Positions 17,697 through 52,490 of a stretch of 60,384 nt of DNA are shown one piece after another. Position 1 is the first letter of the stretch. Every line of letters begins with the position of its first letter. Below the pieces are notes generated by a model that saw nothing but the letters and a program-made list of their open reading frames with translations, made no database searches and was not told the DNA's origin. The stretch comes from an uncultured Thermoplasmatales archaeon (GTDB lineage: Archaea > Thermoplasmatota > E2 > UBA202 > JdFR-43), in contig CBEXJS010000002.1 of NCBI GenBank assembly GCA_965563795.1, positions 1 through 60,384 of the forward strand, given 5' to 3'. The position numbers were made by a program, and so were the translations under genes.

Positions 17697-21246
<3,550 letters not shown>

Positions 21247-28897: not shown

Positions 28898-30337
28898 ATG
28901 AATCAGAGAACATTTCTGTTTATTTTATCTTTTATAATTATTGCACCATCGATCCTGCTACAAATTAATAAAGAAACAACATCCCATCCATTATATGCAG
29001 AATATTTTCTTGGGGATGTCCCCCTCAATATAACGGGAAATCTTAGTATTGGTGAAAAACCGTCTATTTCTAATTTGCTTATCCCTCCAAGCTGGGACTG
29101 GAGAAATTATTTAGGGCAAGATTGGACCACACCAGCAAAATATCAAGGACCTTGTGGCTCTTGCTGGGCTTTTGCTGCAATGGGAGCATTAGAATCTGTT
29201 ATAAAGATAAGGGAAGGATGCTCTCTTTTCAACCCAGATTTATCGGAGCAATATTTGCTCTCATGCCCGCCAAATAGTGGAGGATGTAGTGGGTGGAATG
29301 CCTATTATGCTTATGATTATTTATACAAGCATGGTGGGGCTTTGTTGGAGGATTGTTTTCCATATAGAGCAAATGATGAAATTCCATGTAGCCAAAAATG
29401 CGAAAACTGGTTAGAGAAGCTAGTTCCAATTAGTGGATATGGACGTTTTTATCAACCAGCTAGAGACTTCATGAAAAAATTCCTTGTTGAAAATGGACCA
29501 TTTGTTGTTCGCATGGCAGTATATAGTGATTTTTATCGTTATGATGGAGGCATATACGAACACCCGGGCATTGAACCACCAAGCGATATAAATCACGAAG
29601 TAATTATAGTAGGATATAACGATAGCCAGCAATATTGGATTTGTAAAAACAGCTGGGGAAAACAGTGGGGAGAAAATGGATTCTTTAGAATAAAATATGG
29701 AGATTGTCAGATTGAACACGACTTGATATATGTAAATTATAATGCAGACTCTTTTAACTGGCCTCCTATTGCTAACGCAGGTGATAGTTACAAAGGGAGG
29801 CCAAACGAGGAAATAATATTTGATGGTAGCGAGAGTGTTGATCCAGATAATGATATAGTCTTATATGAATGGAATTTTGGAGATGGAAGCTTTGCCAATG
29901 GAAAGACCGTTAAACATGCTTATACTAAAGAAAGAGTGTATACAGTGAGCCTAAAAGTTACAGATAGTGAAAACCATTCTAGCACAAATACAGCTCTTGT
30001 ATATATAGATGGAACCTCTCCAAATATCAAAATACTTCAGCCAAAAGAAGGATGCTTATATGTATTTGGCAAGGAATATGCACGCTTTTTTGGTTTTGTA
30101 TTTCGTAAGCCAGTAATAATTGGTCCAATTACAATATACGCTGATGCAAAAGATAATATGAAAATCGAGAAGGTTGAATTCTACATAGATGAAAACTTAG
30201 TTTATGAGTGTAAAAACCCACCTTATTCGTTTCATTGGAAAACAGCAACAAATGGACAGCACTCAATAAAAGTGATTGCATATGATTATGTAGGTAATAA
30301 AAACGAGGAAAATATGAATGTCATAAGATTTGGTTAA
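28898..30337 (+). CDS. Secreted papain-family (C1) cysteine peptidase with PKD domain and C-terminal Ig-like module
   Basis: Signal peptide. [18 protein letters not shown] contains the catalytic Cys89 (codon 29162-29164). His context is NHEVIIVGY, and the Asn/Trp block is [15 protein letters not shown]. The PKD-like segment is [23 protein letters not shown]...YTVSLKVTD. Confidence 0.88.
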
Positions 30338-33764: not shown

Positions 33765-34157
33765 CTATCTTTTTATTTCTTTTATTGCATCTTTTATTAT
33801 TTTTTCATGGTCAAAAGCCAATGGTGGCAAGTTATCTAAGCTGAAAAATTTTGCATCTGCTGCATCATCTCCTGCTTTTGGCTCTCCTTCTGCTTCCAGC
33901 AAGAAAACAACAGATATTACATGCCCTCTTGGATCCCTATCAGGCTCAGAATATACTCCTAACAATTTCTTTATTTTTGCTTTAATGCCCACCTCTTCTT
34001 GAAATTCTCTGAGAACAGCATCCTCTACTCTTTCTCCATATTCAACAAATCCACCTGGCAAAGCCCATTTATCCTTGAATGGCTCGTTTTTCCTTTTTAT
34101 TAGCAAAATTTTCCCATTTTTTATTAATACTCCATCTACCGCAACGCTTGGTTTCAT
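33765..34157 (-). CDS. NUDIX hydrolase
   Basis: The Nudix box is GGFVEYGERVEDAVLREFQEEVGI. It overlaps the upstream C25 gene by 4 nt. Confidence 0.88.
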   Translation of the reverse strand: MKPSVAVDGVLIKNGKILLIKRKNEPFKDKWALPGGFVEYGERVEDAVLREFQEEVGIKAKIKKLLGVYSEPDRDPRGHVISVVFLLEAEGEPKAGDDAADAKFFSLDNLPPLAFDHEKIIKDAIKEIKR

Positions 34158-36379
34158 AGCATCACCGCAAAAATTTTCACTTCATCTTCCGCCACATTAT
34201 CTGCCATATCATAACCCACAACCTTGATTTCATGATTTCCTAAAACTCCCTTTAGCTTCCAGGTAAATGGAGAATCGTAATCTGTATACATAAGTTCATT
34301 ATCTAAATAAAATTCCACTCTTGCAACATCTCCTTCTGCCACAACATCTATTCTTCCTATTATAATAGCAATTTCTTTGTTTATGTCAATCAATTTTCTG
34401 TTGAAAAGGTATATGGCGCCTTCTTCAGGCTTTGTTATATTTATAGATGGCGAAGAGAAGTCAAAATAACATGAAGTATCAGCAACAGCAGGCTTATTTT
34501 CTGTGTAATTTCCCACCCTTATTGAAGTATAGAACTCATAATATCCTTCTTCTTCTTCTGGCAAAAATTCCCATTCATAAGGAGGAGAATATAGAGTGTC
34601 ATACAACTGCCAGCCTCCCCAAAACAATCCTACCTTCCTATAATATAAATCTATAGTTACATTCGTTTCCTGTGTTTCAGCCCATATCTTGATGGCAGTA
34701 TTTGACCTATTTTTGCTTGCTATAGCTTTTGATGTTAATGGCTGGGAAGAAATTTTTATAGATGGGTCTCCAAGCAAATTATATTCTATAACTGTAAGAA
34801 CATCATAATCATTCTTAAATGGGTGATTTGTTAAATAATCCTCTTTAGCCCTAGCAAAAATTTCTCCAATAGATAAGCAACCATCATAGTGTGCTTTAAA
34901 GAAAGCTTTATCTAAATATCCACTCAATCCTCCCTTTATTGATTTGCCAAGATAAACATAGGCAACTCTGCTACTCCCAGCGTAAGCAATTGCTCCACCA
35001 TTAGCACGCAATACAAACCTCTCTCCTAAGCAATCTGTTGTATCAAATTGATTCGTTGAGCAAGCCATAGCAAATACAATGGGCAAAAAGCGATTTGTAA
35101 GCATATTTACATGGCTTATATAAAAGCCACTGAGTTGCCATCCCATTCCATATGGACTGCCATGGGAGGCAAAATTCACAAAGAGCATGCCTTTCTTAAT
35201 ATATTTAATAATATTTTCTGCGGTTGAATATCCATCACTTGGATAGACGTTTGTTTCATATAGCTTTATTATTTCCATATTTATTTCTTGGCTTATGATT
35301 TCTTTTAAATAATCCCCCTCACTAATTTCTGTATCCCAGAAAAGCTCGGTCCCAACCATTAATGCTCTCATTGGTGGCTCTTCATAGTTTATAATTTTGT
35401 TAATCAAAATTTTTAACCCATTCTCCTCACTTGCTGGCAATCTCCCAATATAGATATCTGGATATAAATCTGGTTTATCATCTAATCTCTCTCCATAAAG
35501 ACCATCCTTATCTAAATCCCAAGAGCAAAAGCTTCCATTTGCATAATAAACGTCTGCAAAATATAAATCAGAAGGCACATCTTCAATTACAGTATAAGCA
35601 TATCTTACAGGCAAAATATCCGCATCTCCAGCAAGAATAACATATTTTATTCCCCATTGCTCAATTGCATTTTTAATGAAATATTTTATTTTTTCAGCAT
35701 CATCTCTTCCTTGGCATGGAAAATACAAACCATTATATATTTCATCTAAGGAGATAACTATTGTTTTTATTCCTTGGCTCTCCTTAAACTGTTTTAATTC
35801 CTGTAATTCATCTTCAAATTTGCTTGGGCAAATGATAAGCAAGTCATATTCATCTTTGTTAAACAATGGCTGAGAAGGTAATTTGTAATCAATGGAAATG
35901 TCGAAATCCTTTGCATATAAAACTTCATTTCTTATAGCATTGTATCTCACTGGATAGAGATAAATGTTTAAGAAAACAACATGCTTTCCATCTTTTATTC
36001 CCATTCCTATGCTATAATCATACCATTCATTTGGATAAAATTCATCCTTGCTATAAATTTCTCCTTCCTTTATTTCGTATTTATATTCCATATTCAATGG
36101 CATAGCTGGTGGAGCTGGCTGTATCTTCTTTTCAAGCTTTATTTCCTCAATTTTCTTTGCTTCAACGTTTATTTCATTTATTTTTGTTCCAGCAGGATAC
36201 GTATATGTCTTTACATAATATGGCAATATAGGATAGCCTTCACTGTACATATACAAAGCATTTTCAAGCTGTAAAATGCAATAGTTGCCATTGTCAATAA
36301 TTGGTAAATCATCATCATTTTCTGCCCTAATAAAAGGCAGGAAAAGAAGCACAACTAAAATTGACATAAATTTTCTCAT
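34154..36379 (-). CDS. Secreted peptidase C25 (gingipain-like), paralog 2, with C-terminal Ig-like module
   Basis: Blocks KDEYDLLIICPS and DDAEKIKYFIKNAIEQWGIKYVILAGD. Dyad contexts are VNFASHGSP and IVFAMACSTNQF. ATG 36379 (MRKFMSILVVLLFL signal peptide) forms an ATGA overlap with the asnS stop. The track start 36451 runs into asnS. Confidence 0.8.
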   Translation of the reverse strand: MRKFMSILVVLLFLPFIRAENDDDLPIIDNGNYCILQLENALYMYSEGYPILPYYVKTYTYPAGTKINEINVEAKKIEEIKLEKKIQPAPPAMPLNMEYKYEIKEGEIYSKDEFYPNEWYDYSIGMGIKDGKHVVFLNIYLYPVRYNAIRNEVLYAKDFDISIDYKLPSQPLFNKDEYDLLIICPSKFEDELQELKQFKESQGIKTIVISLDEIYNGLYFPCQGRDDAEKIKYFIKNAIEQWGIKYVILAGDADILPVRYAYTVIEDVPSDLYFADVYYANGSFCSWDLDKDGLYGERLDDKPDLYPDIYIGRLPASEENGLKILINKIINYEEPPMRALMVGTELFWDTEISEGDYLKEIISQEINMEIIKLYETNVYPSDGYSTAENIIKYIKKGMLFVNFASHGSPYGMGWQLSGFYISHVNMLTNRFLPIVFAMACSTNQFDTTDCLGERFVLRANGGAIAYAGSSRVAYVYLGKSIKGGLSGYLDKAFFKAHYDGCLSIGEIFARAKEDYLTNHPFKNDYDVLTVIEYNLLGDPSIKISSQPLTSKAIASKNRSNTAIKIWAETQETNVTIDLYYRKVGLFWGGWQLYDTLYSPPYEWEFLPEEEEGYYEFYTSIRVGNYTENKPAVADTSCYFDFSSPSINITKPEEGAIYLFNRKLIDINKEIAIIIGRIDVVAEGDVARVEFYLDNELMYTDYDSPFTWKLKGVLGNHEIKVVGYDMADNVAEDEVKIFAVML

Positions 36380-37665
36380 GGATATGCCCTCCTTAGTAAG
36401 CGTGGAAATGGAGTTGCATCTCTTATATGCTCCAATTTTGCAAGCCAGCAAATTAGTCTTTCCATTCCCAATCCAAAGCCTGAATGAGGAACTGAGCCAT
36501 AGCGACGCAAATCAAAATACCATTGATAATTTTCAATGTTAGCACCATCTTTTTTAAGCCTCTCTATCATTGATTCAATATCTTCTTCCCTTTCAGAGCC
36601 TCCTATTATTTCTCCATATCCTTCCGGAGCCAGCATATCTGCACATTCTACAGTCTTTTTATCTGGAGAAAGTTTCATGTAAAATGCTTTTGATTCTGCT
36701 GGAAAGTGGGTTACAAATATTGGCTTATCCTCTCCTTCTACCAACGCCTTTTCATGTGGCGCTCCAAAATCATCACCCCATTGTATATCAAAGCCTTTTT
36801 CCTGCAAAATTTTGATTGCATCCTTGTATTTTATTCTTTTGAAAGGTGGCTCAACAGCCATTAAGTCTTTTGGGTCTCTTCCAAGAAATTCTAACTGCTC
36901 CTTGCATTCTTTAGCAACTTTTTGGCATACATAGCTTATCATTTCTTCCTGCAATTTCATATTTTCTTCGTTTCTCACCCATGCTTCCTCTGCCTCCAAA
37001 TGCCAGTACTCTATTAAATGCCTTCTTGTTCTCGATTTCTCCGCTCTAAACGAAGGAGTTAAACTCCATACTCTTTCCAAGGAAAAAATCAAAGCTTCTA
37101 AATACATCTGGGCTGTCTGGCTTAAATACGCTTTTTGCCCAAAGTAATCAAAGGAGAAAACTGTTGCTCCTCCCTCGGCAGCATTCATTGTAATAACGCT
37201 TGGAGTAACCTCCCAAAATTCATTCTCATCAAACCATTCCCTTATAAATTTCAAAACCTTTGCCTTTAATTTCATTACTTCCGTTAGCTTCCTGGAACGA
37301 AGCCATAAATGACGGTTGTCAAGCAAAAATTCAACACTCTGATATTCTGTTATAGGAAATTCTTCAGCAAAGCTAATAACATTGAATTTTGTAGCATGAA
37401 TTTCTCTACCCCCAGGAGCTCTTTCATCTTCATGAATTATTCCTTCTACTTCAACAGATGATTCAATTAAAGCTTTTTTTGCATTTTTGAAATCCTCCTC
37501 AGCTACTTTTCCCTTTTCAACAATAACTTGGATTATACCTGTTGAATCTCTCACAACAACAAAAATTATTTTTCCCCCTTTCCTTTTCCTATAAATCCAT
37601 CCTCTTATCTTTGTTTTTTCTCCCTCTCCTTTTTTCAATGCATCTCTTATTTTTTCAAATTCCAT
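36376..37665 (-). CDS. asnS: Asparagine--tRNA ligase
   Basis: 429 aa, class IIb. Near-collinear by eye with archaeal AsnRS: SLTPSFRAEKSRTRRHL.E.WHLE, DMLAPEGYGEIIGGS.RE, YGSVPHSGFGLG.ERL and ending FPR....YP. Confidence 0.88.
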   Translation of the reverse strand: MEFEKIRDALKKGEGEKTKIRGWIYRKRKGGKIIFVVVRDSTGIIQVIVEKGKVAEEDFKNAKKALIESSVEVEGIIHEDERAPGGREIHATKFNVISFAEEFPITEYQSVEFLLDNRHLWLRSRKLTEVMKLKAKVLKFIREWFDENEFWEVTPSVITMNAAEGGATVFSFDYFGQKAYLSQTAQMYLEALIFSLERVWSLTPSFRAEKSRTRRHLIEYWHLEAEEAWVRNEENMKLQEEMISYVCQKVAKECKEQLEFLGRDPKDLMAVEPPFKRIKYKDAIKILQEKGFDIQWGDDFGAPHEKALVEGEDKPIFVTHFPAESKAFYMKLSPDKKTVECADMLAPEGYGEIIGGSEREEDIESMIERLKKDGANIENYQWYFDLRRYGSVPHSGFGLGMERLICWLAKLEHIRDATPFPRLLRRAYP

Positions 37666-37671
37666 CGTTTT

Positions 37672-40212
37672 TTAATGCAATCCTATCATAAAAATTTTGG
37701 TGTTCGGAAGAAATTTTCTTCCAAGTAGGTATATTCCTTTGGAATCAAATTCTATGAATTCAAAAATAAATGGCTTAACTTTTATTTCAGAGTTTGTGGG
37801 GAAGCGAAGCCAGGGCCATATTTTTACCCATCCAGGATAAACGAAAATAGCATCTCCTTTCCATGGTTTCTTAAACAAAAAACTCGGGCCAAACCAACTA
37901 CCCCAATAGTTATAGGTAGCATTATCATGACAATTCTCTCCCTTTATGCCGTATTTTGAATTTCCAAATATATTGTTGTAGTTTATCTCATTGTTTTTTG
38001 TATTTGTCATGTTTATTCCAATTTGATTCTCGCAAATACAATTGTATTTTATCTTATTGGAGGTGGATATTTTTATTAATATGCCATAATTGTTAGACAC
38101 GATCTCATTTTTGAAAATAGAATTGTTAAATGAATCATATATGAAAATAGCTATATCATTGTTAGAGAAATTATTTCGAGATATATTAGCAAAACAAGCC
38201 CATGACATTGAAATTCCTTTTGTATTTTTACAGAAAGTATTTTTTATTATTTCATCATACCATGTACTCTCCATTAATAGCGCTTCTGAATTATTATAGA
38301 AAATATTGTATCCTACATAGTTATTAGAAGCTCTATTAATTTCAATACCTTGAAAATTATGAGAAATATTGCAGTTTGATATATTATTTGCATCTGAATC
38401 TAATGTAAGAATACCGGTAATGTTGCTGTAAAGTATATTACTGTTAATAATTTTGCAATTTTTCCCATTGAGAAGTAGAATACTTATGTTGTTATTGTTT
38501 AAAATACATTCATCAATAATGCAAGAAGTTGAATTATGTAATTCTATTCCAATAACGCTCTTTGTTAATATACTATTTACAATATTGCAATTATTTGAAA
38601 AACCTATTTCTATGCCCACTGTAGCATTGCTTATATTTTGATTTTTTATAATGACATTTGAGCAATTTGCAAGAATAACTTGTCCTACTCCAGATGGAAC
38701 TATTCCTCCTTTAATATTCTTCCAGTAATATACTGGTTTACCATTTACTGTATTTGTAACATCTATTTCATGTGTATTCCAGTATTTTAATGAATCTCCT
38801 CCTAATACAATTCCATTGTTAATCATTGTGTTGTTTGTAAGTGTGCAATTTATAGCTTCTATGGCGATGCCGACGAGTCCGTATTTAATTACATTATTAG
38901 CAATATAGTAGTTATTGGAGGCAATGATACCAACTAAATTTTGGTTAAAAGTGTTATTGGTAATGATACTGTTAGCAGATTTCGGAGGGTAAATACCATA
39001 TACATTACCTTTTATAGTGTTATTATCTATTATATTATTTTTTGAATGATATAAATAAATGCCATAGGAGAAATAAAAGCTATATAAGTCAAAATAAAAA
39101 GAGGTTATTTGTTTTTTTATCTCATTATTGCTAATTCTGCAATTATCGGAATAACGAAGTTCAATACCTTTTGTATTATTATCCACTACATTATTTACAA
39201 TATTGCAATTATTTGAAAAACCTATTTCTATGCCCACTGTAGCATTGCTTATATTTTGATTTTTTATAATGACATTTGAGCAATTTGCAAGAATAACTTG
39301 TCCTACTCCAGATGGAACTATTCCTCCTTTAATATTCTTCCAGTAATATACTGGTTTACCATTTACTGTATTTGTAACATCTATTTCATGTGTATTCCAG
39401 TATTTTAATGAATCTCCTCCTAATACAATTCCATTGTTAATCATTGTGTTGTTTGTAAGTGTGCAATTTATAGATTTATATAACATAATCCCTTTTTTAT
39501 TGTTATAAAGATAATTTTGTGTAACAATGCAATTGCTGGAATGATAAAACCAAATACCTGCGTAATTGTTATTGAGAATATTATTAGATACTGAAATATT
39601 AGCAGAATTTATCAAATGAATGCCATCCAAGTTGTTTATTTCGTTGCCAATGATACTGCAATTATTAGCTTCATATAAAACAACAAAACCATAACTTATA
39701 TTATTGCCAACAAATGCAAAATCACTTGAATACCTTATCGAGACACCATTTTCATATAAAATTACATTTTCTACTTCCCCGTTTCTAACATTTAAGAAAA
39801 CCATACCATAATTATAATTTTCTATGCCTTTGTATATATAGCAATTTCTTATTACAAAATATGCTGTTGTATTTTCTATTCTAATTCCGTCTGTAATGCT
39901 TGCATTTATTTCCCATCCTTCTATAATATATGGATTCTCTTTTGTTCCGTTTCCTCCAACAACACCATTCTCTTCTGTAAAGTTTTCATTCCCATTTATA
40001 TAAATTGGTGGGCGAGGGGTGTAGATATCAGGGACTTTCAAATGAGGAGTTTTATTTTGTATCTTTTCCTGATTAAATTTTAAATAATTAAAAAAAGGAT
40101 ATATTGAAATGGGACTTTCATCATCTTTTATTAAAATGTTTTTCTCTTCGTTCCCTACAGAAAAATTTGCAAATAAAAGAATGAAAAGAATGGCTATTAC
40201 CATCCTTCTCAT
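37672..40212 (-). CDS. Secreted right-handed parallel beta-helix repeat protein (PbH1/NosD-like)
   Basis: 846 aa with a signal peptide and tens of roughly 22-aa N/I/G-rich beta-helix coils (NNxIxxNxxGIxL). The C-terminal block is YNYWGSWFGP. It contains a perfect internal duplication. Confidence 0.75.
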   Translation of the reverse strand: MRRMVIAILFILLFANFSVGNEEKNILIKDDESPISIYPFFNYLKFNQEKIQNKTPHLKVPDIYTPRPPIYINGNENFTEENGVVGGNGTKENPYIIEGWEINASITDGIRIENTTAYFVIRNCYIYKGIENYNYGMVFLNVRNGEVENVILYENGVSIRYSSDFAFVGNNISYGFVVLYEANNCSIIGNEINNLDGIHLINSANISVSNNILNNNYAGIWFYHSSNCIVTQNYLYNNKKGIMLYKSINCTLTNNTMINNGIVLGGDSLKYWNTHEIDVTNTVNGKPVYYWKNIKGGIVPSGVGQVILANCSNVIIKNQNISNATVGIEIGFSNNCNIVNNVVDNNTKGIELRYSDNCRISNNEIKKQITSFYFDLYSFYFSYGIYLYHSKNNIIDNNTIKGNVYGIYPPKSANSIITNNTFNQNLVGIIASNNYYIANNVIKYGLVGIAIEAINCTLTNNTMINNGIVLGGDSLKYWNTHEIDVTNTVNGKPVYYWKNIKGGIVPSGVGQVILANCSNVIIKNQNISNATVGIEIGFSNNCNIVNSILTKSVIGIELHNSTSCIIDECILNNNNISILLLNGKNCKIINSNILYSNITGILTLDSDANNISNCNISHNFQGIEINRASNNYVGYNIFYNNSEALLMESTWYDEIIKNTFCKNTKGISMSWACFANISRNNFSNNDIAIFIYDSFNNSIFKNEIVSNNYGILIKISTSNKIKYNCICENQIGINMTNTKNNEINYNNIFGNSKYGIKGENCHDNATYNYWGSWFGPSFLFKKPWKGDAIFVYPGWVKIWPWLRFPTNSEIKVKPFIFEFIEFDSKGIYLLGRKFLPNTKIFMIGLH
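38574..38855. repeat. Copy 1 of a 282-bp perfect direct repeat inside the beta-helix gene
   Basis: Base-for-base identical by eye to 39192-39473. The offset is 618 bp (206 codons), which is in frame. Confidence 0.9.
39192..39473. repeat. Copy 2 of the 282-bp perfect direct repeat
   Basis: Identical to 38574-38855. It encodes ...CTLTNNTMINNGIVLGGDSLKYWNTHEIDVTNTVNGKPVYYWKNIKGGIVPSGVGQVILANCSNVIIKNQNISNATVGIEIGFSNNCNIVN. Confidence 0.9.
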
Positions 40213-40250: not shown

Positions 40251-43200
40251 TTATCCTATCTCTTTCACTTCTTCATAAATTTGTTTTAAAATTTCCATAT
40301 AATCTGCTTTTCCATTTTCTACCATGTCCATTTCTTCTTCAATTTTCCTTGTTCTTTCCTCGCTAACGAAGCTTCCGTAGTTTTGGCTCAAAAATTCATA
40401 AACTTCTTTTCCCCTTTTTGTCGGAATTATTTTTCCGTTTTTCTCTATTACATAATCTCTTATGAAAAGTTTTTCGACAATGGTAGCATAGGTAGAGGGG
40501 CGCCCAATGCCTTTTACACGCATGTCATGAATAACCTCTGACTGAGTATATAAAGGCATTTTCGGCAGATACTTTATTATAGCTTTTTTCCTGAATTTGC
40601 CTATCGGCAATTCATTTTTCACCCATACCGCCTTATATAAATCATATGCCCTTCCTTTTGCTTCAACAACTCTTTCTTCCTCAATTTCTTTTCCATCATA
40701 TTTTATTCTATATTTCTTTATCTTGACAATATATTCCTTGCATTGACTCGCCATAAATCTGCGGAAAATCAAATCATATAAAGCTAAATGTTGCCAGTCT
40801 ATATCCTCAACTTGCAAAACTTTTTCATGGATTAGGCGTTGAAGTAAATTCTTATCCCATGGGCGAGTTGGTCTAATGCATTCATGCGCTCCTTCCTTGA
40901 AGAATGTTCTACCCTTGAAATCATCGCCTAAAAACTCTTTTGCCACTCTCAGTCCAGCGTCGCTAACACGGGTTGAATCTGTTCTGTGATAAGTTATTAA
41001 ACCGCTTTCAAACAAAGTTTGGGCTATTTTCATTGCTTTATTTGCAGGAAGTTTTAGAATGGCATTTGCATCTTTCAGCATTTCATCAGTTGTATATGGT
41101 GGCAGTGGTTGCTTTTCCTCCTCTCTTTCTTCCAATAATTCAATCTCCAGCTTTATCTCTTCGCCTGCATTTTCAAGCATTAAGCCAAAGTCCTCAATTA
41201 TAGCTACTTTTTTCTTTTGCCTGTATTGCTTCTCCCTTTCAATTATCCATCCTAGCACGGGCGTTTGTGCTCTCCCTGCTGATAAATTTCTATTATTAAA
41301 AACATCCCATAATTTCTGGCTTAAACAAAATCCAATCCACCTGTCTTCTATCCTCCTCACAATTTGAGCCTTAACTAAATTTTCATCTATGTTTCGCAAA
41401 TTCTCAAAAGCATGTCTTATTGCTTTTGGAGTAATCTCATGAAATTCAGCTCTCCTTATTTTTCCACATCCTGCCAATAAATTTGCAATGTCCCAAGCAA
41501 TTTTTTCCCCTTCAGCATCTGGGTCTGTGCCTATAATTATTTCCTCCACTTCATAAGCAAGTTTTCTTAATGAGGAAATTCTATTCTTTGAATCATCTAT
41601 ATTCTCGCTTTTACATCTTATGCATATCTGGCTCTCTTCGGTAAATTGATAGCCACAATCCTTGCATCTTTTTATTGAAGCATATATAGGAACAAAGGTT
41701 CCATTTAGCTCTATACCATGAAATCCTCTATTTGTTATTAAATCTGTAAGATGCCCCAGGCTTGCTGTAATGAGCAATACATATTTTTCTGTAGCTACTT
41801 CATAAGCAATTGAATTTCCAATTACTTTAATGCTGGGCTTACCAAAGAAACGAGAAATTTGCTTGGCTTTTGTTGGACTCTCTACAATGAATAATGCCGG
41901 TTTAATCAAATCCTTCTTTTCTTCCTTCCTTTCCTTTCTGCTTTCCTCTACTTCCTTTTTTAACTTCTCAAAGTCTATCTCCTCCAATCTTTTAAACTCA
42001 ATATCATAATAGCTTGCTCTTTCTATAAATGCTCTTAAAATTTCGCCATCATCTTCAAAAAGAAATGATGCTCCTTTTGTTATTCCTCCTGCCAGCAAAC
42101 GAGATGTTCTGCCAGATCCTTGTATATAAGTTCTTACATCAGGAAATATGATTTCTCCTTTTCGAAGGACAAAATCTCTTTCTTCTTTTATTCCTTCTTC
42201 CATTATTCTTTTTATTGCTAATTTTAATTCCTCAAATTCCTTCCTTTTTTCGATAGTTGGCAAAATAGGAATAAATTTCTTTATCTCTTCCCTATTCCTA
42301 AATAAGTTGGCTATAACTTTTATTGCATTTGGGCTAAGCTCATCAATTTCTTCAATTCTTATTCTATTGACGGGGGCGCCAATAAAAACAGCATACTTTA
42401 TCTCTTTCGGCAAGTCTATGCCCCTAATTAAAGCTCCATAGTAATATGCGGTGCCTATAAGAAAATCAAGTTCTCCTTCCTTAAATTTCTCAAATGCTTC
42501 TTTACTTTTTGATGTTACTAATCCAATCTTAAATTCATCTTTTAGCTTTTCATACCATTTCTCACATTCTTCTATACTCCTCGCATATATTATTACTCCT
42601 TTTTTCAGCTTATTCAAAAGTTTTTTTATTTCTGCTTCATTTTCCCCTTCAATATAAACATCTTCAATATTTCTTATGGTAAAATAGGAAGAGCCTATAT
42701 CAAAGTTTAAAAGTTGCCTGAATAGTTCTGCTTTCTTTCCTTTTTTAGCCGTTGCTGTTGAAACCATTAAAATTCCCTTTGCTTTACCTTTCCATTTGCC
42801 ATCATAATAAAAGCCCAGCAAGCTTAAGATTCTATCAATGTTGCGAGAAGCTTTTAAAATAGCATCAACATCATCAACAAAGATGAAGTCAAATGTTATT
42901 CCTTTTAAATCGTCGAAATGCTTTGCTAAAAATTGCGTAGTAGTCAACAAAATTTTGAATTCCTTATTTTTAAGTTTTTCAAAAAATTCTTCTTTTTCTT
43001 TCATCCCTCCATAGTAGTAAAGCACTTTTTCTTTCAGCTTAAGCTTTTCAGAAATTTTATTTATTGTTTCTAAAGATTGCTGAACTAGGAGAGTTGTTGG
43101 AAAAATAAGATAGCTTTTTTTGCCTTTCTTTGCAAAGAATAATGCCATTGTAATGCCAAATGAACTCTTGCCAATTCCTGTTGGAGCTACGGCGGCGAAA

Positions 43201-43418
43201 CTTTCTCCTCTTAATATCCTTTTTGCCCAAAATTTCTGCAATGCTCTTGGCTTTCCTATAGCTTTTTCAAAGAAGCTAAAAAATTCATTGATTATTTCTT
43301 CTTCTTTTGCATAACAAAGTGGCTTGTTTTTTTCCTCGCATTTATTTAAAGCTATTTCCTCAGTAGCTAAATCTTTTTTGCATATGGGGCATAGATTTGC
43401 ATATTTTGCTTCAATCAT
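40251..43418 (-). CDS. rgy: Reverse gyrase
   Basis: 1055 aa. It has an N-terminal zinc finger CPICKK...C and helicase motifs APTGIGKS and VDDVD. A Toprim/topoisomerase IA half follows (LFIVESPTKAKQI, TDPDAEGE, ITYHRTDS). Confidence 0.92.
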   Translation of the reverse strand: MIEAKYANLCPICKKDLATEEIALNKCEEKNKPLCYAKEEEIINEFFSFFEKAIGKPRALQKFWAKRILRGESFAAVAPTGIGKSSFGITMALFFAKKGKKSYLIFPTTLLVQQSLETINKISEKLKLKEKVLYYYGGMKEKEEFFEKLKNKEFKILLTTTQFLAKHFDDLKGITFDFIFVDDVDAILKASRNIDRILSLLGFYYDGKWKGKAKGILMVSTATAKKGKKAELFRQLLNFDIGSSYFTIRNIEDVYIEGENEAEIKKLLNKLKKGVIIYARSIEECEKWYEKLKDEFKIGLVTSKSKEAFEKFKEGELDFLIGTAYYYGALIRGIDLPKEIKYAVFIGAPVNRIRIEEIDELSPNAIKVIANLFRNREEIKKFIPILPTIEKRKEFEELKLAIKRIMEEGIKEERDFVLRKGEIIFPDVRTYIQGSGRTSRLLAGGITKGASFLFEDDGEILRAFIERASYYDIEFKRLEEIDFEKLKKEVEESRKERKEEKKDLIKPALFIVESPTKAKQISRFFGKPSIKVIGNSIAYEVATEKYVLLITASLGHLTDLITNRGFHGIELNGTFVPIYASIKRCKDCGYQFTEESQICIRCKSENIDDSKNRISSLRKLAYEVEEIIIGTDPDAEGEKIAWDIANLLAGCGKIRRAEFHEITPKAIRHAFENLRNIDENLVKAQIVRRIEDRWIGFCLSQKLWDVFNNRNLSAGRAQTPVLGWIIEREKQYRQKKKVAIIEDFGLMLENAGEEIKLEIELLEEREEEKQPLPPYTTDEMLKDANAILKLPANKAMKIAQTLFESGLITYHRTDSTRVSDAGLRVAKEFLGDDFKGRTFFKEGAHECIRPTRPWDKNLLQRLIHEKVLQVEDIDWQHLALYDLIFRRFMASQCKEYIVKIKKYRIKYDGKEIEEERVVEAKGRAYDLYKAVWVKNELPIGKFRKKAIIKYLPKMPLYTQSEVIHDMRVKGIGRPSTYATIVEKLFIRDYVIEKNGKIIPTKRGKEVYEFLSQNYGSFVSEERTRKIEEEMDMVENGKADYMEILKQIYEEVKEIG

Positions 43419-45034: not shown

Positions 45035-47506
45035 TTATGGATATCCTCCTATTTTTAGGCTTGGATCCCCTAGCAAAACCCACTGTTGCACCGTCTTTTC
45101 ATCTATCCAGTCCCATCCCAAATCTGGATACCACCAGCACTCTGGCAGAGTAAATTCCTTGAAATGCTGTATATAGCTATTTATTGTTTGCACGTAATTT
45201 ATGCCAAGCATGTTATATCCATGCTCACCGTATTGTCTAAAGAATTCAGATGTAATCCATCCATCTCCAGCACCAACAGTACACCATTCTCCTTCCCATC
45301 CCCATCCATAGCCAGTGTTGCCCATTGATGCTATTGCTCCAGTGTTAGGTAATCTAACGAGGCACCATGACAGGCACTCTGGAACAAGCTGTCCGTATGT
45401 ATGCATCCATATGTTTTTTCCCATAAACAGGAGGAACAAATGCAATACAGATGGAACAGCTGAAACGTTAAACTGGCTATTATGACATCCTCCGATAACT
45501 GTAATTGGCCACTTTCCTTCATTTGAAATTTCTTTTAGGGGGAACAATGGAAAGCTAATGTATGGGAAGTAACCTTTTACTTGAGATACAACAAGCCCAG
45601 CAAGCTGAGCATATCTTCTATTTCCTGGTATTCCTGGCAAGTGATCCCCCCAGAATCCAGGGCTTCCATGACCGGAGAGAAAAGCAAATCCATGTCCCTT
45701 GCTATATGCATCTATTACATCATCCATACCAGTATACCTTCCATTTGAGGTCCATAGTATATCTCTTTCAAAGTCATCTGGCATGTAATACAATGCTCCT
45801 CCTCTTCCATGCAACTCTTTCTCACCAGTTACCCATTCTCCTTCATAATACATTTCTGTATTGTTGCGCCATGCTTCAAAAACAACTTCGCCATCCTCAT
45901 TTTCTACCCATACATGAATGCTTGTTACATTTCCATATGGCTTTGGATCATATGATTTGCCCCTTATTGTAAGGATACCATTTTCATAACTTATATCTGC
46001 CCAGTGGAATAATTCATTACAATATGCTTCCCATTCTGATGGAGTATAGGTATAGTCTGTATTGCCTAAAATATCTCCATCTGATACGCTAACAATCTCT
46101 GCAATTGGAGGAGCAGGATATCCATTTTGCAAAGCTGGATTTAAATGATCATCATGATTGAAAGTAAGTTTTGTTTCCTTGCTTCTATCTATAGTAATGT
46201 GAATTTCATCAATTGGGCCTGCTTCGCCTTCATCATTTATGCTTTGGGCATAAATGACATATTTTCCATCTGGCAATCCTTTTGTATCCCATGTAATGTT
46301 CAAGTCTTGCTGATCAAGAAATCCATCTCCAGATACAACCAAAATCCTTTTGAACCACTGGCTACCATAAGCATTTTTCTCATATTCAATGATTTTATTT
46401 ACCACATCTTCAACTTCCTTAAGATTTCTGCATGCAAGCCTTCCAACAGCAACATCTGGATATAAGTCTAAAACATCATCCGGTTCTTTTTCGATATCAA
46501 GCCATTCTGCAAATATACCATTGCCATTGCTGTCCCAGTCATCAAATTCTCCCCCTTCTTTATATATGTCTGCATAATATAAATCGCAAAGATAACCTGG
46601 CTCTTCAGCTATAAGGTTTGAATATCTTACTGGCAAATGCCATCCAGTTACGCCAGCATTTTTATTATCTTTTGGCTTTGCATATATTAATGATTTTAAT
46701 CCACCTACAAGTAATACATATTTTATTCCATATTGTTCAATTGCATTTTTAATGAAATATTTTATTTTCTCTGGCTCATCTCTGCCATTGTATTTGCTGT
46801 AAATTTCTTCAGTAGTCATTAAAAATGTTTTTACTCCATAGTTATTTTTATGCTCAACAAGCTTTTGCAATGCATCAGAAAATTCTGAAGGAGCTATAAT
46901 CACCATATCATATACATCTCTCTGTATCCATGGTTTCTTTGGAGGTAAATAACTTATTTTTATTTCTGCATTCTTAGCCACAACCACCTTATTTTCTGCT
47001 GGCAAATATCTTACTGGATAAATGTTTACTGTAACAAAAGTAACATGCTCCATTTTCTCATTTAGCCCACAACCTACTCTATAACTATACCAGCCAGATG
47101 GATAAAGCTTATTGCTGGAATAAACCTCTTCATCTTTTCCTAGAGGATGGTATCCTTTTATTGGCGTTAATGGCATAGGAGCAGGAGCTGGCATTATCTG
47201 CTTTTCTATGATTTTTTCCTCTACTTCTTTTACCTCCACCTCCACTTTTACGTTCCTTACACCAAATGGAAGCTCAAAAATTTTTAGTACTCTTGGAAGC
47301 ATTGGTTTGCCAGGAGCCATAATGTATAATTCCTCTCCATTTTCATTGGGCATTTTTATCCTTATATAGTTTTCTTTTTGCGTGAATTTCGGCTCAAAGA
47401 ATTGCACTTTTATTTTCTTGGTATATTCTTCAGCATTGCTAAATGTTATTCCTCCAAAAATTAGTATGGTAACTATTGCAATAGCTACTACTCTTTTCAT
47501 TTTCAC
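45035..47506 (-). CDS. Secreted peptidase C25 (gingipain-like), paralog 3
   Basis: 823 aa with a signal peptide. Blocks are YDMVIIAPS and EPEKIKYFIKNAIEQYGIKYVLLVGG. Dyad contexts are AFLSGHGSPG and ITVIGGCHNSQF. The C-terminus is LLGDPSLKIGGYP. It carries a roughly 200-aa insertion between the halves relative to paralog 1. Confidence 0.8.
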   Translation of the reverse strand: MKMKRVVAIAIVTILIFGGITFSNAEEYTKKIKVQFFEPKFTQKENYIRIKMPNENGEELYIMAPGKPMLPRVLKIFELPFGVRNVKVEVEVKEVEEKIIEKQIMPAPAPMPLTPIKGYHPLGKDEEVYSSNKLYPSGWYSYRVGCGLNEKMEHVTFVTVNIYPVRYLPAENKVVVAKNAEIKISYLPPKKPWIQRDVYDMVIIAPSEFSDALQKLVEHKNNYGVKTFLMTTEEIYSKYNGRDEPEKIKYFIKNAIEQYGIKYVLLVGGLKSLIYAKPKDNKNAGVTGWHLPVRYSNLIAEEPGYLCDLYYADIYKEGGEFDDWDSNGNGIFAEWLDIEKEPDDVLDLYPDVAVGRLACRNLKEVEDVVNKIIEYEKNAYGSQWFKRILVVSGDGFLDQQDLNITWDTKGLPDGKYVIYAQSINDEGEAGPIDEIHITIDRSKETKLTFNHDDHLNPALQNGYPAPPIAEIVSVSDGDILGNTDYTYTPSEWEAYCNELFHWADISYENGILTIRGKSYDPKPYGNVTSIHVWVENEDGEVVFEAWRNNTEMYYEGEWVTGEKELHGRGGALYYMPDDFERDILWTSNGRYTGMDDVIDAYSKGHGFAFLSGHGSPGFWGDHLPGIPGNRRYAQLAGLVVSQVKGYFPYISFPLFPLKEISNEGKWPITVIGGCHNSQFNVSAVPSVLHLFLLFMGKNIWMHTYGQLVPECLSWCLVRLPNTGAIASMGNTGYGWGWEGEWCTVGAGDGWITSEFFRQYGEHGYNMLGINYVQTINSYIQHFKEFTLPECWWYPDLGWDWIDEKTVQQWVLLGDPSLKIGGYP

Positions 47507-48042: not shown

Positions 48043-49257
48043 ATGGAAAAAATTGTTGCTATGATAATTATGCTTCTTTTCCTTTTCCCCTTTATAAGTA
48101 GTGAAAATACAGTCCATGTTGCTAACACAAATAATGTTTTATATGTTGGAGGCACCGGTCCAAACAACTACACAAAAATACAGGATGCAATAAATGATGC
48201 AAAAGATGGCTACATCATTTATGTTTACCCTGGCTATTATAATGAAAGCATTGTAATAAACAAAAGTATATCATTGATTGGCATAGGGGAAGAAAAGCCA
48301 GTTATAAATGGAAAAGGAAATGAATATACTGTATTGATAGAAGCAGATAATTGTACTGTTAAGCAATTTGTAATAAAAAATGGAAAGATAGGCGTTAAAT
48401 TAACAGATGTATACCACATTAAAATAGAAAATAACACTATCAGGTATGCATCTATAGGGATTTTATTATTAAATTCTTCACAATCTTTAATCAGAAACAA
48501 CACACTAAATGAAAATGGCATGGGAATCAATCTGCAAGGGTTTTCAAATAATAATGCAATAATTGGAAATATAATTTATAATAACAAGGGAACTGGAATA
48601 GGTATATATGGGATATTTTCTGAAAAAACGCACGGCATAACTATTTCATACAATAATATTACAAAAAATTTTGATGGCATCGAAATATTTGTTTCATCTG
48701 ATGGCATGATTTCCTTCAATCATGTTTACAAAAATAAACAATACGGAATATCAATTGATATTTGTGAAAACATGTCCATTTTAAATAATTCTATTCATGA
48801 CCATACATATGGAGGATTGCAACTGATGGATTGTTCATATAGCATTGTTGAGGGAAATGAAATATATGAAAATTCTGCAGGAATAATGGTGCAATCAAGC
48901 TATACATGGGGAGAACATTTCAATCTTATAAAGAGAAATGATGTATATTCAAATGCTGACTATGGAATATATGTGGAACGTTCTTTGTATAATGTCTTTA
49001 CTCAAAATAATCTTATAAATAATGGGAGGAATGCATGGTTCTGGTATCATGTTATTATTGGCAATCCTTCATTGCCAATAAGACCCTGTCACAATAGATG
49101 GTTCAATAATTACTGGGATGACTGGAAAAGTACTTTGCCAAAGCCGGTGGTAGGTTTACTGGATGTTGATGTTGACCTTTTTGATAGATACATATGCATC
49201 TGGAGTGGTTCATGGCTCAACTTTGACTGGCATCCTGCTTTAGAACCATGGAAGTAA
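48043..49257 (+). CDS. Secreted right-handed beta-helix repeat protein (PbH1/NosD-like), short paralog
   Basis: 404 aa with a signal peptide and beta-helix coils (IRNNTLNENGMGINL, IIGNIIYNNKGTGIGI). The C-terminal block is NNYWDDW...W. Confidence 0.7.
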   Translation: MEKIVAMIIMLLFLFPFISSENTVHVANTNNVLYVGGTGPNNYTKIQDAINDAKDGYIIYVYPGYYNESIVINKSISLIGIGEEKPVINGKGNEYTVLIEADNCTVKQFVIKNGKIGVKLTDVYHIKIENNTIRYASIGILLLNSSQSLIRNNTLNENGMGINLQGFSNNNAIIGNIIYNNKGTGIGIYGIFSEKTHGITISYNNITKNFDGIEIFVSSDGMISFNHVYKNKQYGISIDICENMSILNNSIHDHTYGGLQLMDCSYSIVEGNEIYENSAGIMVQSSYTWGEHFNLIKRNDVYSNADYGIYVERSLYNVFTQNNLINNGRNAWFWYHVIIGNPSLPIRPCHNRWFNNYWDDWKSTLPKPVVGLLDVDVDLFDRYICIWSGSWLNFDWHPALEPWK

Positions 49258-51226: not shown

Positions 51227-51460
51227 ATGAAAATTACTGTTAAAGATGCTGAAACAGGCAATAAAGTAAATATGGAAGTTGAAGATGATAATACCATTGA
51301 AGAAATAATTGAAGAAGTGGCAAATTACTGGAAAAAGAATCCAGGAGCATATGTAATAAGATATGGAAAGAAAATTTTGCAAGCTGAGCTAACTGTTGAG
51401 GAAGCAAATTTGCATGAAGGAGATGTCATTGAATTAATTCCTGATCCAGAAGGAGGTTAA
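51227..51460 (+). CDS. Ubiquitin-like beta-grasp protein ending in Gly-Gly-stop
   Basis: 77 aa: [27 protein letters not shown]...[35 protein letters not shown]. It aligns by eye with eukaryotic ubiquitin ([26 protein letters not shown]...LIFAGKQL...LRGG). GGTGG lies 4 nt upstream of the ATG. The stop TAA abuts the ATG of the E2 gene. Confidence 0.8.
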   Translation: [77 protein letters not shown]

Positions 51461-51979
51461 ATGCCTCTTCCAAGAGATTTGTTATTAAAAAGAATAAAAA
51501 ACGAGATTAGGGAATGTAAAAGAAAGCTTAAACACCATTTTGTTGTTTCGGATCCAGAATTTAAAAAATTGCCATTAGAAATAACTGTTACATTGGTAAA
51601 TACCCCTGGACCAATATGGAGTGATGGAAGAGTAATTCATAAATTTACACATAAATTAAAGATAATTATTACTGAGGATTATCCATATCAAACACCTATA
51701 GTAAGATGGAAAAGCCCAATTTTTCATCCAAACATAATGCCTCCTGAAGATGGTGGCTATGTTTGCACAAAACTTTTAGAGGGATGGAGCTTTAAATCAA
51801 ATCTTTTAGCTTTTATTAAAGGGCTAGAAGTTTTACTTGCTAATCCAAATCCGCAGAATCCTTTTGAAACAGATGCATGTACAAGAGCTGCAGAATATTT
51901 TAATAAGCATCCCTACAATCCGCCAGAAATAAAGGAAAAGAAACCCAAAATTTTGAGAGAAAATGGTGAAGATAAGTAA
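51461..51979 (+). CDS. Ubiquitin-conjugating enzyme (UBC/E2)-like protein
   Basis: 172 aa with UBC core signature YPYQTPIVRWKSPIFHPNIMPPEDGGYVCTKLLEGW...LLANPNPQNPFE. HPN is at codons 89-91 (51725-51733) and the candidate catalytic Cys102 at 51764-51766. A GGAGG Shine-Dalgarno is formed by the Gly-Gly codons of the upstream gene. Confidence 0.82.
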   Translation: MPLPRDLLLKRIKNEIRECKRKLKHHFVVSDPEFKKLPLEITVTLVNTPGPIWSDGRVIHKFTHKLKIIITEDYPYQTPIVRWKSPIFHPNIMPPEDGGYVCTKLLEGWSFKSNLLAFIKGLEVLLANPNPQNPFETDACTRAAEYFNKHPYNPPEIKEKKPKILRENGEDK

Positions 51980-52490
51980 CGAAGAAAAGAAGGAGCCAAA
52001 GCTTCAGCCCCCTCCCCAGCAAATTTTATATAGGCATGGCAAGGAGAAAGAATTTGAATTGTACATAAAGGAAAATGCATTTCAAAGTTTGCTAGAGCAT
52101 TGCAATAAAATGGCAGAAGAGAATAAGGAAGCAATGGGATTTTTGGTAGGAGATGTAAAATATTGGAATAAAGAATATGCTGTTGTATATGATATTGCCA
52201 CTGCATCCTTAGATGCTTCTCCATATCATGTTAAATTCAGAAAAGATGCTTTTGAAGAATTATTTAATAAATTAGATGAAATAAGCTTTGATTATATACT
52301 AGTAGGATGGTATCATTCTCATCCTGGCTACTCAAGCTTTATGTCCGAAATTGATGTTGAAACTCAGAGAAAATACTTCAATAAAAGCTTTCATGTCGCC
52401 TTAGTTGTTGATCCAATTAAAAAAGAAATAAAAGCATTTAAGCTTAAAAATTCAGAATGCGTTGAAATAGGATATGCAATAGTTAAATAA
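51963..52490 (+). CDS. JAMM/MPN+ metalloisopeptidase (Rpn11/JAB-like)
   Basis: 175 aa with catalytic Glu context EAMGFLVG and a complete HxHx7Sx2D motif, HSHPGYSSFMSEID. It overlaps the E2 gene by 17 nt. Confidence 0.85.
   Translation: MVKISNEEKKEPKLQPPPQQILYRHGKEKEFELYIKENAFQSLLEHCNKMAEENKEAMGFLVGDVKYWNKEYAVVYDIATASLDASPYHVKFRKDAFEELFNKLDEISFDYILVGWYHSHPGYSSFMSEIDVETQRKYFNKSFHVALVVDPIKKEIKAFKLKNSECVEIGYAIVK

Follow-up and report, generated by a model that had tools for sequence, protein, structure and literature searches.

The open reading frame (ORF) at positions 51461-51979 of the window (the whole analysed stretch of 60,384 nucleotides, contig CBEXJS010000002.1 of assembly GCA_965563795.1, from an uncultured Thermoplasmatales archaeon) is a real, strongly conserved gene for a ubiquitin-conjugating enzyme of the UBC fold (E2) in a heat-loving Thermoplasmata archaeon. 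It lies between the genes of a ubiquitin-like modifier (Ubl) and an Rpn11-like JAB/MPN+ metalloprotease, and probably encodes the active E2 of a minimal, eukaryote-like conjugation system of the ubiquitin type in this thermophile. An earlier annotation made from the nucleotide sequence without database searches (the sequence-only reading) had described the ORF as E2-like; a script returned the frame, every motif and every coordinate as given there, among them the HPN motif at residues 89-91 and the catalytic cysteine, Cys102 (Table 1).

The assignment is carried by profile and sequence searches. The Pfam model UQ_con (PF00179) matches the protein with E=1.9e-15 and 57.1 bits, which passes the curated threshold (gathering cutoff 27), and the match covers profile positions 1-126 of 140, whereas the Pfam UEV model matches weakly (E=0.12). 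In a phmmer search of the PDB the protein retrieved 238 matches (best 1.9e-11); the 60 listed are all canonical E2s, among them Rad6/UBE2A, UBE2T, Ubc9, and UBE2N, and the alignments superimpose their HPN, Cys, Trp, and PNP on those of the window protein. When a 72-sequence profile of the family was used instead, the best match improved to 2e-14 (UBE2A, 2.3e-14) and the matches listed were again all eukaryotic E2s. An hhalign alignment with UBE2D2 pairs the HPN, Cys102, and Trp109 positions with the residues given in Table 1, the PNP at 129-131 with PNP113-115, and P134 with P118. Identity to eukaryotic E2s is approximately 22-26% in structure-based alignments and approximately 32% over the conserved core (hhalign). 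No NCBIfam model reached its cutoff for any of the four proteins considered here (Ubl, E1, E2, and JAB), and some GenBank and IMG records already label proteins of the family "ubiquitin-conjugating enzyme E2".

Key active-site residues are conserved throughout the orthologous group. Among 121 aligned homologues (53-98% identity), H89, P90, N91, C102, W109, P129, N130, P131, and P134 are 100% invariant, as is R11; this includes Cys102 and Asn91, the two residues whose conservation the sequence-only reading had singled out for a check. Estimates of the ratio of nonsynonymous to synonymous substitutions (dN/dS) against the nearest relative are 0.028 for E2, 0.015 for Ubl, and 0.077 for JAB (dS approximately 0.35-0.56, unsaturated). 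The E2 gene is thus under strong purifying selection, as befits an enzyme under constraint and not a decaying or UEV-like copy. A non-catalytic UEV-like protein, acting only in Ubl binding or scaffolding, has been considered because several distant relatives have lost the cysteine (P0266, P0278, P0282, P0272, P0257, and P0259) and because of the weak UEV match; those Cys-less proteins, however, form a separate, lower-scoring tier with another architecture and genomic context, while in the orthologous group of the window E2 the cysteine is never lost. With the UQ_con score far above that of UEV and the selection pattern described, such a role is extremely improbable, and the data support a catalytically competent UBC-fold enzyme rather than a degenerate UEV, as had been proposed from the sequence.

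The wider family contains other rearranged forms. Ubl-E2 fusions of approximately 225 aa keep HPN and have exchanged the catalytic Cys for Ser (P0266), Glu (P0278), His (P0282), or Lys (P0272); they are true UEV-like derivatives and occur in other genomic surroundings. A further member of this fusion family, P0277, adjoins a 1447-aa protein with a faint Prok-RING_1 match. The E2 cysteine is also replaced in the distant relatives P0257 (Tyr) and P0259 (His). Single E2-JAB polypeptides occur as well, namely P0243 (682 aa) and P0259 (534 aa), the latter being the protein with the Cys to His exchange and having an added repeat region. They either provide Rosetta-stone support for a functional link between E2 and JAB or are frameshift artefacts.

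The predicted structure agrees with the sequence evidence. The AlphaFold2 model, for which the family alignment served as input (mean predicted local distance difference test score, pLDDT, 85.4; predicted template modelling score, pTM, 0.76), has the core of the UBC alpha/beta fold, with alpha1 (residues 5-22), six strands, a crossover helix alpha2 (115-127), and alpha3 (138-149). In the Foldseek comparison with the PDB, which together with the model supplies the structural test called for in the sequence-only reading, the top 50 matches are all E2s at probability 1.00 (e.g., Ubc9, UbcH5c, Ube2K, Rad6, and E2S), with template modelling (TM) scores of 0.6-0.73 normalised by target. The N-terminal stretch that had been likened to the E1/E3-binding helix 1 of E2s falls within the modelled alpha1, in which L8, R11, and E15 are invariant. 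By alignment, Cys102 would correspond to the surface-exposed Cys85 of UBE2D2. Of the outcomes that would have spoken against the sequence-only reading, neither a fold other than UBC nor variation at Cys102 is seen.

Several features distinguish the family from known E2s. The distance from HPN to Cys is N+11 instead of N+8 because of an insertion of three residues, Met93-Pro94-Pro95, which belongs to a family-specific and nearly invariant loop, IMPPEDGGYVC (M93, G98, and G99 invariant; P95, D97, and Y100 at least 90% conserved). The model has an extra beta-hairpin at residues 50-61. The C-terminus had been described as a basic tail overlapped by the start of the JAMM gene; the overlap stands (17 nt), whereas a mere basic tail does not describe a segment with a conserved motif at residues 160-166. 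Across the 121 sequences its columns hold R/K in 95 and 90, P/I/V in 121, R/K in 102, I/V in 120, V/I/L in 120, and G in 92. The tail also has a conserved Y152-x-P-P, while the motif segment is modelled without structure (pLDDT 48-59). A similar PR[IV][IV] motif is found in the distant archaeal E2 relatives P0295, P0300, P0303, and P0311. Since the family E1 has no ubiquitin-fold domain, an E1-docking peptide is the favoured guess for the 160-166 motif. Two further cysteines, Cys19 (51512-51517, 99%) and Cys140 (51878-51880, 100%), are conserved across the 121 homologues. They align with the buried Leu13 and Ala124 of UBE2D2, and a disulfide, a metal site, or a role in core packing is conceivable.

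The E2 gene is embedded in a compact cassette. The upstream product matches Pfam PF00240 above its cutoff (E=2.6e-8) and ThiS below cutoff, and its PDB matches are ubiquitin, polyubiquitin, and ubiquilin. Because the product ends exactly at the Gly-Gly before the stop codon, the Ubl appears to be made in its mature form. The same end is found in 60 of 78 homologues; the remaining 18 carry 1-8 additional residues (e.g., locus L018, ending in ...PEGGSCFLKTCL) and would need processing. The bases that code for Glu-Gly-Gly at the end of the Ubl double as the Shine-Dalgarno sequence of the E2 gene, and the E2 ATG follows immediately on the TAA stop of the Ubl gene (51458-51460), so the two genes are probably coupled in translation. 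The conserved -EGG end of the Ubl and the coupling signal thereby use the same bases (51452-51460).

Downstream, the JAB gene overlaps the E2 gene by 17 nt at its start, and its 3' end overlaps the 3' end of a convergent gene for class I lysyl-tRNA synthetase (LysRS). The best PDB matches of its product are yeast Rpn11 (1.1e-12) and the Rpn11-like protein of Caldiarchaeum (6FJV/6FJU, approximately 5e-12), followed by CSN5 and AMSH-LP. The JAB of the window (175 aa) is shorter than most orthologues (206-222 aa, e.g., L008:4189-4812); the C-termini align, the difference in length is due to an N-terminal low-complexity region, and the catalytic core is intact. Comparison of 86 related loci, with up to 10 kb on either side of the E2 gene, showed Ubl, E2, and JAB in the same order at every locus that was not ended early by a contig edge. 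Rfam and tRNA scans found no RNA gene near the cassette.

A candidate activating enzyme (E1) is linked to the cassette in most of these loci. In approximately 60 of the 86, a gene of the ThiF family is found upstream in the same orientation, mostly directly before the Ubl gene and in a few cases 2-5 kb away. The encoded proteins are small (256-280 aa, approximately 257) and share invariant GxGxxG, SNLxRC, and CxxC motifs and a cysteine within [FY]SCTG, 16 residues after the CxxC; in the family member P0133 this residue is Cys188. The AlphaFold model of the E1 (pLDDT 85.7) is a single Rossmann-type domain with this Cys in a disordered loop (residues 180-199), and superposes globally on UBA5, ThiF, MoeB, and MccB (TM approximately 0.8-0.88). 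At the sequence level the E1 profile finds the active adenylation domains of Uba1/Uba6/Uba3/Uba2 at 1e-40 to 1e-35, MoeB/ThiF at 1e-26 to 1e-24, and UBA5 at approximately 3e-21. The E1 hence combines a canonical-E1-like adenylation core with an ancestral compact architecture that has neither a Cys domain nor a ubiquitin-fold domain.

In the subclade of the window, transketolase stands upstream of the cassette in place of the E1. Two unlinked E1 genes whose products carry all family signatures were located in other metagenome-assembled genomes (MAGs). One, on CAZDCH contig 008, lies between the genes of orotidine 5'-monophosphate (OMP) decarboxylase and alanyl-tRNA synthetase, and the cassette of the same MAG (L020) belongs to the subclade of the window. 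The other is on JAGGYX contig 001; the cassette of that MAG (L026) is more distant (64% E2 identity), and its upstream flank is at a contig end. As the complete four-gene operon adjoins OMP decarboxylase in L098, and adjoins LysRS in L089 as the cassette does in the window, a rearrangement must have split the E1 gene from Ubl-E2-JAB. An E1 gene next to OMP decarboxylase is seen in several lineages (L092:6001-6771, L096:3685-4458, and L098:2803-3582).

The data show the gene structure, the fold, the register and invariance of the motifs, the purifying selection, the conserved operon, and the unlinked E1 orthologues of sister genomes; from these a scheme can be inferred for the thioester chemistry, the pairing of E1 and E2, the nucleophile attacked, the proteins modified, and the role in the cell. 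The compact ThiF/UBA5-sized E1, which in the subclade of this organism would be encoded elsewhere in the genome, would adenylate the terminal Gly of the 77-aa Ubl at its free -Gly-Gly end. The Ubl would then pass as a thioester to the invariant cysteine in the flexible crossover loop of the E1 ([FY]SCTG), and move to Cys102 of the E2 by transthioesterification, a step to which the conserved association of the E2 gene with E1 and Ubl genes in operons lends indirect support. A substrate amine would attack the E2~Ubl thioester, with Asn91 of HPN organising the active site. As a RING E3 was found neither in the 60-kb window nor, in related loci, at up to 10 kb from the E2 gene, this transfer is probably E3-independent or mediated by an unlinked factor. 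The co-translated Rpn11-like JAMM protease would reverse the modification and, where the Ubl is extended, might also mature the precursor. The physiological role is probably in housekeeping proteostasis or regulation, and not in defence.

Some observations weigh against this picture. The E2 model has no alpha4: no helix follows residue 149, and residues 150-172 are unstructured (pLDDT 48-59). The acidic residues D87 and D117 of UBE2D2, considered to assist in activating the incoming lysine in E2s of the UBE2D type, are replaced in the family by K/R and N/S, so that the acceptor could be other than lysine. D87 (in CLD) corresponds to K/R104 (C-T-K here), and position 133, the equivalent of D117, is N in 76%, S in 18%, and D in 3% of the 121 sequences, with Asn133 in the window protein; in addition, S94-P95-A96 of UBE2D2 is replaced by S-F-K. 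The 60-kb window has no E1/ThiF-family gene (Pfam scan of approximately 53 ORFs; jackhmmer with a ThiF seed), and the unlinked E1 orthologues were seen only in other MAGs that carry the same E2 family. Finally, a regular-expression search for RING E3s was negative in ORFs of at least 40 aa across the full 60-kb window and the 86 loci (up to 10 kb on each side), although this search is crude, U-box or novel ligases would escape it, and an unlinked E3 is outside its reach; no RING Pfam domain was found in the window ORFs scanned (a few, e.g., 45035-47506, were left out) or in the called neighbours.

The E2 architecture that the sequence-only reading called complete is therefore retained for HPN, Cys, Trp, and PNP, and does not extend to the absent alpha4, the three-residue loop insertion, or the replaced D87, D117, and SPA. 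Because the UBE2D2-type acidic residues are exchanged, the lysine-directed conjugation proposed there can be put forward only conditionally, and with alpha4 lost as well, another acceptor chemistry is conceivable. A genuine E1-E2 relay could then end on something other than lysine, such as a protein N-terminus, a Ser, Thr, or Cys side chain, or a nucleophile that is not a protein, or it could belong to a pathway of sulfur transfer or tRNA modification like that of SAMP/Urm1. The K/R104 and N/S133 substitutions point in this direction, as does the replacement of alpha4 by a disordered tail with a conserved motif; UBE2W, an E2 specific for N-termini, likewise ends in a disordered, non-canonical segment. 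The ThiF/MoeB size and fold of the E1 point the same way. These roles are nevertheless unlikely: HPN is kept and invariant, the modifier resembles ubiquitin and not ThiS/MoaD, an Rpn11-like isopeptidase is co-translated with the E2, no sulfurtransferase or rhodanese gene is present in the operon, and Rad6-type E2s also have, in the alignments, Ser and not Asp at the D117 position.

The distribution of the gene bears on its origin and role. A protein search with the E2 retrieved 271 homologues, of which the named ones are nearly all from Thermoplasmata/Thermoplasmatota MAGs. When one genome per GTDB species was scanned, relatives were found in at least 388 species-representative genomes, the best 80 all being Thermoplasmatota. 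An exhaustive search with the family profile gave 4057 matches at E<=1e-3 and 31 at E<=1e-30, with Methanomethylophilaceae, Sysuiplasma, and Theionarchaea proteins in the next tier. Across 29 loci, pairwise identity of the E2 follows that of ribosomal protein L13 (Pearson 0.89, Spearman 0.80; ranges 0.49-0.98 and 0.43-0.99 for E2 and L13, respectively), and also correlates with that of other neighbouring genes (Pearson 0.89-0.92). The neighbours comprise transketolase, tRNA synthetases (LysRS), thioredoxins, SIS/AP-endonuclease, and an L18e-L13-S9 ribosomal cluster. That E2 divergence tracks L13 speaks for vertical descent and for a core function in the cell, with the reservation that linked genes could travel together.

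Two other accounts of the cassette have to be set against this pattern. A eukaryotic source, through recent horizontal transfer or through contamination of the metagenome bin, would explain why the best solved-structure matches of all components are eukaryotic proteins. The locus, however, has the build of a prokaryotic operon, with gene overlaps and Shine-Dalgarno sites, it is flanked by archaeal genes (for class I LysRS, reverse gyrase, and split transketolase), it is found in identical form in several independent assemblies, it occurs phylum-wide, and the E2 is only approximately 22-26% identical to eukaryotic E2s. The genomic context effectively refutes a eukaryotic source. An anti-virus defence module of the Bil or Cap2/Cap3 kind (the latter from cyclic-oligonucleotide-based anti-phage signalling systems, CBASS), modifying phage proteins or priming immunity, is suggested by the gene content, since Ubl, E2, JAB, and E1 formally equal BilABCD. 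There are also weak matches to PADLOC models, of the JAB to those for JAB (1.6e-10) and BilC (8.5e-7) and of the E1 to those for Cap2 E1-E2 (approximately 1e-15). Against these stand a stand-alone UBC protein that is not fused to an E1 and has HPN, not the CEHH of BilB, and a 257-aa single-domain E1 that is neither a multidomain BilD nor an E1-E2 fusion. The presence of the operon in at least 388 species representatives, its tracking of L13 (r = 0.89), and its housekeeping neighbours, which are not those of defence islands, also make a defence function very unlikely. The E2 matched no PADLOC model at E<=0.01, and its membership of a defence system was rejected on this null result.

A more far-reaching proposal is possible, if doubtful: that the Thermoplasmatota possess a vertically inherited, phylum-wide, E3-independent minimal ubiquitylation machine, in which a Uba1/Uba3-like core is housed in a single-domain ThiF architecture and the alpha4 of the E2 has been swapped for a C-terminal docking peptide (residues 160-166) that replaces the interaction with the ubiquitin-fold domain of the E1. 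If true, the system would be an evolutionary intermediate leading from sulfur-carrier E1/Ubl pairs to the E1-E2-E3 cascade of Caldiarchaeum, Asgard archaea, and eukaryotes, and canonical E2 chemistry would then not be confined to the TACK/Asgard lineage.

Table 1. Features of the Ubl-E2-JAB cassette and of a related locus. Positions are those of the window unless a locus or a protein is named.
Feature	Position	Strand	Remarks
Ubiquitin-like modifier (Ubl) gene	51227..51460	+	77 aa; ends ...ELIPDPEGG then stop
Shine-Dalgarno GGAGGT of E2 gene	51452..51457	+	read from sequence; formed by Ubl Glu-Gly-Gly codons
E2 (UBC-fold ubiquitin-conjugating enzyme) gene	51461..51979	+	172 aa, ATG to TAA
Helix alpha1, aa 5-22	51473..51526	+	model; L8, R11, E15 invariant; equivalent to the E1/E3-binding helix of eukaryotic E2s
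alpha1-like stretch LLLKRIKNEIRECKR	aa 7-21 of E2		motif position confirmed by script
YPYQTPIVRW	aa 74-83 of E2		
HPN motif, His89-Pro90-Asn91	51725..51733	+	100% invariant in 121 sequences; H75-P76-N77 of UBE2D2
Insertion Met93-Pro94-Pro95	51737..51745	+	gaps in Rad6, UBE2A, UBE2D2 alignments
GYVCTKLL	aa 99-106 of E2		Cys102 within
Catalytic cysteine Cys102	51764..51766	+	100% invariant; Cys85 of UBE2D2, Cys88 of Rad6
EGW	aa 107-109 of E2		
Trp109	51785..51787	+	Trp93 of UBE2D2; followed by S-F-K replacing the S-P-A loop-7 motif
LLANPNPQNP	aa 125-134 of E2		
PNP, aa 129-131, of the LLxNPNPxNP block	51845..51853	+	P129, N130, P131, P134 invariant
Basic C-terminal tail PPEIKEKKPKILRENGEDK	aa 154-172 of E2		
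C-terminal tail motif, aa 160-166, [RK][RK][PIV][RK][IV][VIL]G	51938..51958	+	KKPKILR in this protein
Rpn11-like JAB/MPN+ metalloprotease gene	51963..52490	+	175 aa; Pfam JAB E=1.1e-13
Catalytic Glu56 of JAMM	52128-52130	+	conserved in 73-homologue alignment
JAMM zinc-site motif H118-S-H120...S128-x-x-D131	52314..52355	+	conserved in 73-homologue alignment
Ubl-E2 fusion family member	L097:5001-5672		

Other genes of the window describe its host. A reverse gyrase with helicase and topoisomerase IA domains is encoded at 40251-43418 (-). Reverse gyrase is a marker of hyperthermophily, and its presence fits the apparent origin of the DNA in a hot enrichment, as sister MAGs of the same project have isolate names ending in 'HD70'. 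Adjacent QueA (Queuosine_synth, 2.9e-103) and TGT (6.8e-125) genes occupy 716-2682 (+). As an enzyme of queuosine synthesis, a bacterial pathway, QueA would not be expected here, archaea normally making archaeosine; the pair may have been acquired horizontally. At 10774-12461 (-), a Ku70/80-like protein (4.6e-43) is encoded beside an ATP-dependent DNA ligase; such a pair for non-homologous end joining is uncommon among archaea. The window further encodes two Peptidase_C25 proteins resembling gingipains (17697-19562, -; 34154-36451, -), a C1 protease of the papain family that carries PKD/Ig domains (28898-30337, +), and NosD/beta-helix surface proteins at 37672-40212 and 48043-49257, an extracellular protein-degrading repertoire typical of sediment Thermoplasmata.

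Among known systems, the closest in content are the archaeal operons of Caldiarchaeum subterraneum (Aigarchaeota) and the Asgard group, which encode ubiquitin, E1, E2, a small RING finger protein, and Rpn11 (Nunoura 2011, PMC3082918). Archaeal ubiquitin systems have been reconstituted (Hennell James 2017, PMC5654768; Fuchs 2018, PMC6043591). The Thermoplasmatota system shares with these operons a ubiquitin-family modifier with a C-terminal Gly-Gly, an E2 with alpha1, HPN, Cys, and the PN loop, and an Rpn11-like JAMM protein; the JAB of the window matches CsRpn11 (approximately 5e-12) nearly as well as yeast Rpn11, and some Ubls of the family have a short C-terminal extension, as CsUb does. It differs in that no small RING E3 was found in the window or within 10 kb of E2 in the 86 loci, in an E2 that lacks alpha4 and the WSPA loop-7 and has the loop insertion and the tail motif, and in its host phylum, Thermoplasmatota instead of TACK or Asgard. 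The Caldiarchaeum E1, according to Hennell James 2017 (PMC5654768), has a separate Cys domain and a C-terminal ubiquitin-fold domain; the family E1 has neither and carries its Cys in the crossover loop.

Two published groupings fit the Thermoplasmatota operon by description. Fuchs 2018 (PMC6043591) defines JAMM-3 as prokaryotic JAMMs closer to Rpn11 that lie in ubiquitin/E1/E2 operons with no E3, and Hennell James 2017 (PMC5654768) describes Cluster III E1s without a C-terminal UBL domain, whose E2s group with bacterial E2-like proteins. On this last point the window E2 differs, its listed matches among solved structures all being canonical E2s of eukaryotes.

Eukaryotic class I E2s (Rad6/UBE2A, UBE2D2, Ubc13, and Ubc9) are the best matches in sequence and fold, with HPN, Cys, Trp, and PNPxxP in register, and like Rad6 (Ser120) the window E2 is non-acidic at the D117 position of UBE2D2. 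It departs from them in having C-T-K/R for C-L-D, S-F-K for the RING-contacting S-P-A loop, no alpha4, three additional residues before the Cys, and the extra beta-hairpin at residues 50-61. For the E1, a parallel is offered by the UBA5-UFC1-UFM1 cascade, a non-canonical pathway of eukaryotes whose E1 is compact and homodimeric. The E1 model matches UBA5 (E=1e-20, TM approximately 0.8) and has, like it, a single adenylation domain, a loop Cys, and no ubiquitin-fold domain, and by analogy this cascade suggests how a minimal E1 might load an E2. In sequence, however, the E1 is closer to Uba1/Uba3/Uba2, and the E2 is a canonical HPN-type UBC protein and not UFC1-like.

The BilABCD operons follow the same four-gene logic of Ubl, E2, JAB protease, and E1. 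BilB is a diverged E2 of the CEHH type and BilD a multidomain E1, and 162 nonredundant Bil operons have been reported (Chambers et al., preprint). Bil operons are thus sparse, whereas the Thermoplasmatota operon is phylum-wide and looks vertically inherited. The window system also differs from SAMP/UbaA conjugation, in that its modifier scores as ubiquitin, with ThiS below cutoff, and an E2 is present. In the SAMP/UbaA system, a MoaD/ThiS-type modifier is conjugated by the E1 alone, independently of an E2, and is removed by the JAMM1 desampylase. The NCBIfam models for UbaA and desampylase give the E1 61-73 bits (cutoff 450) and the JAB 36.5 bits (cutoff 130), and the best solved relatives of the JAB are not desampylases.

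Eukaryote-like ubiquitylation in archaea is already known, and the operon described here represents no new principle; its E2 gene is recognisable by Pfam. Its variant features are the minimal E1, the lack of an E3, and the alpha4-less E2 with a tail motif. To our knowledge, a single Aigarchaeote is the only archaeon whose canonical ubiquitin machinery has been examined by biochemistry, and most discussion of such machinery concerns the Asgard and TACK lineages. A full-text literature search of incomplete coverage returned no account of a Thermoplasmatota Ub-E1-E2-JAMM operon; Grau-Bové et al. reported no more than RING and UCH genes, in a single euryarchaeote of Marine Group II. Here an E2, a modifier, and an Rpn11-like protease of the canonical kind make up a conserved, apparently housekeeping operon across the Thermoplasmata's phylum, Thermoplasmatota, on the euryarchaeal side. 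Given enrichments at approximately 70 °C and the reverse gyrase, the proteins can be expected to withstand heat and to lend themselves readily to reconstitution. Such a stripped-down system is suited to asking what an E2 does without an E3 and how an E1 lacking the ubiquitin-fold domain loads a canonical E2, and it adds, next to the Caldiarchaeum and Asgard operons, a data point on the timing of E2 chemistry relative to eukaryogenesis.

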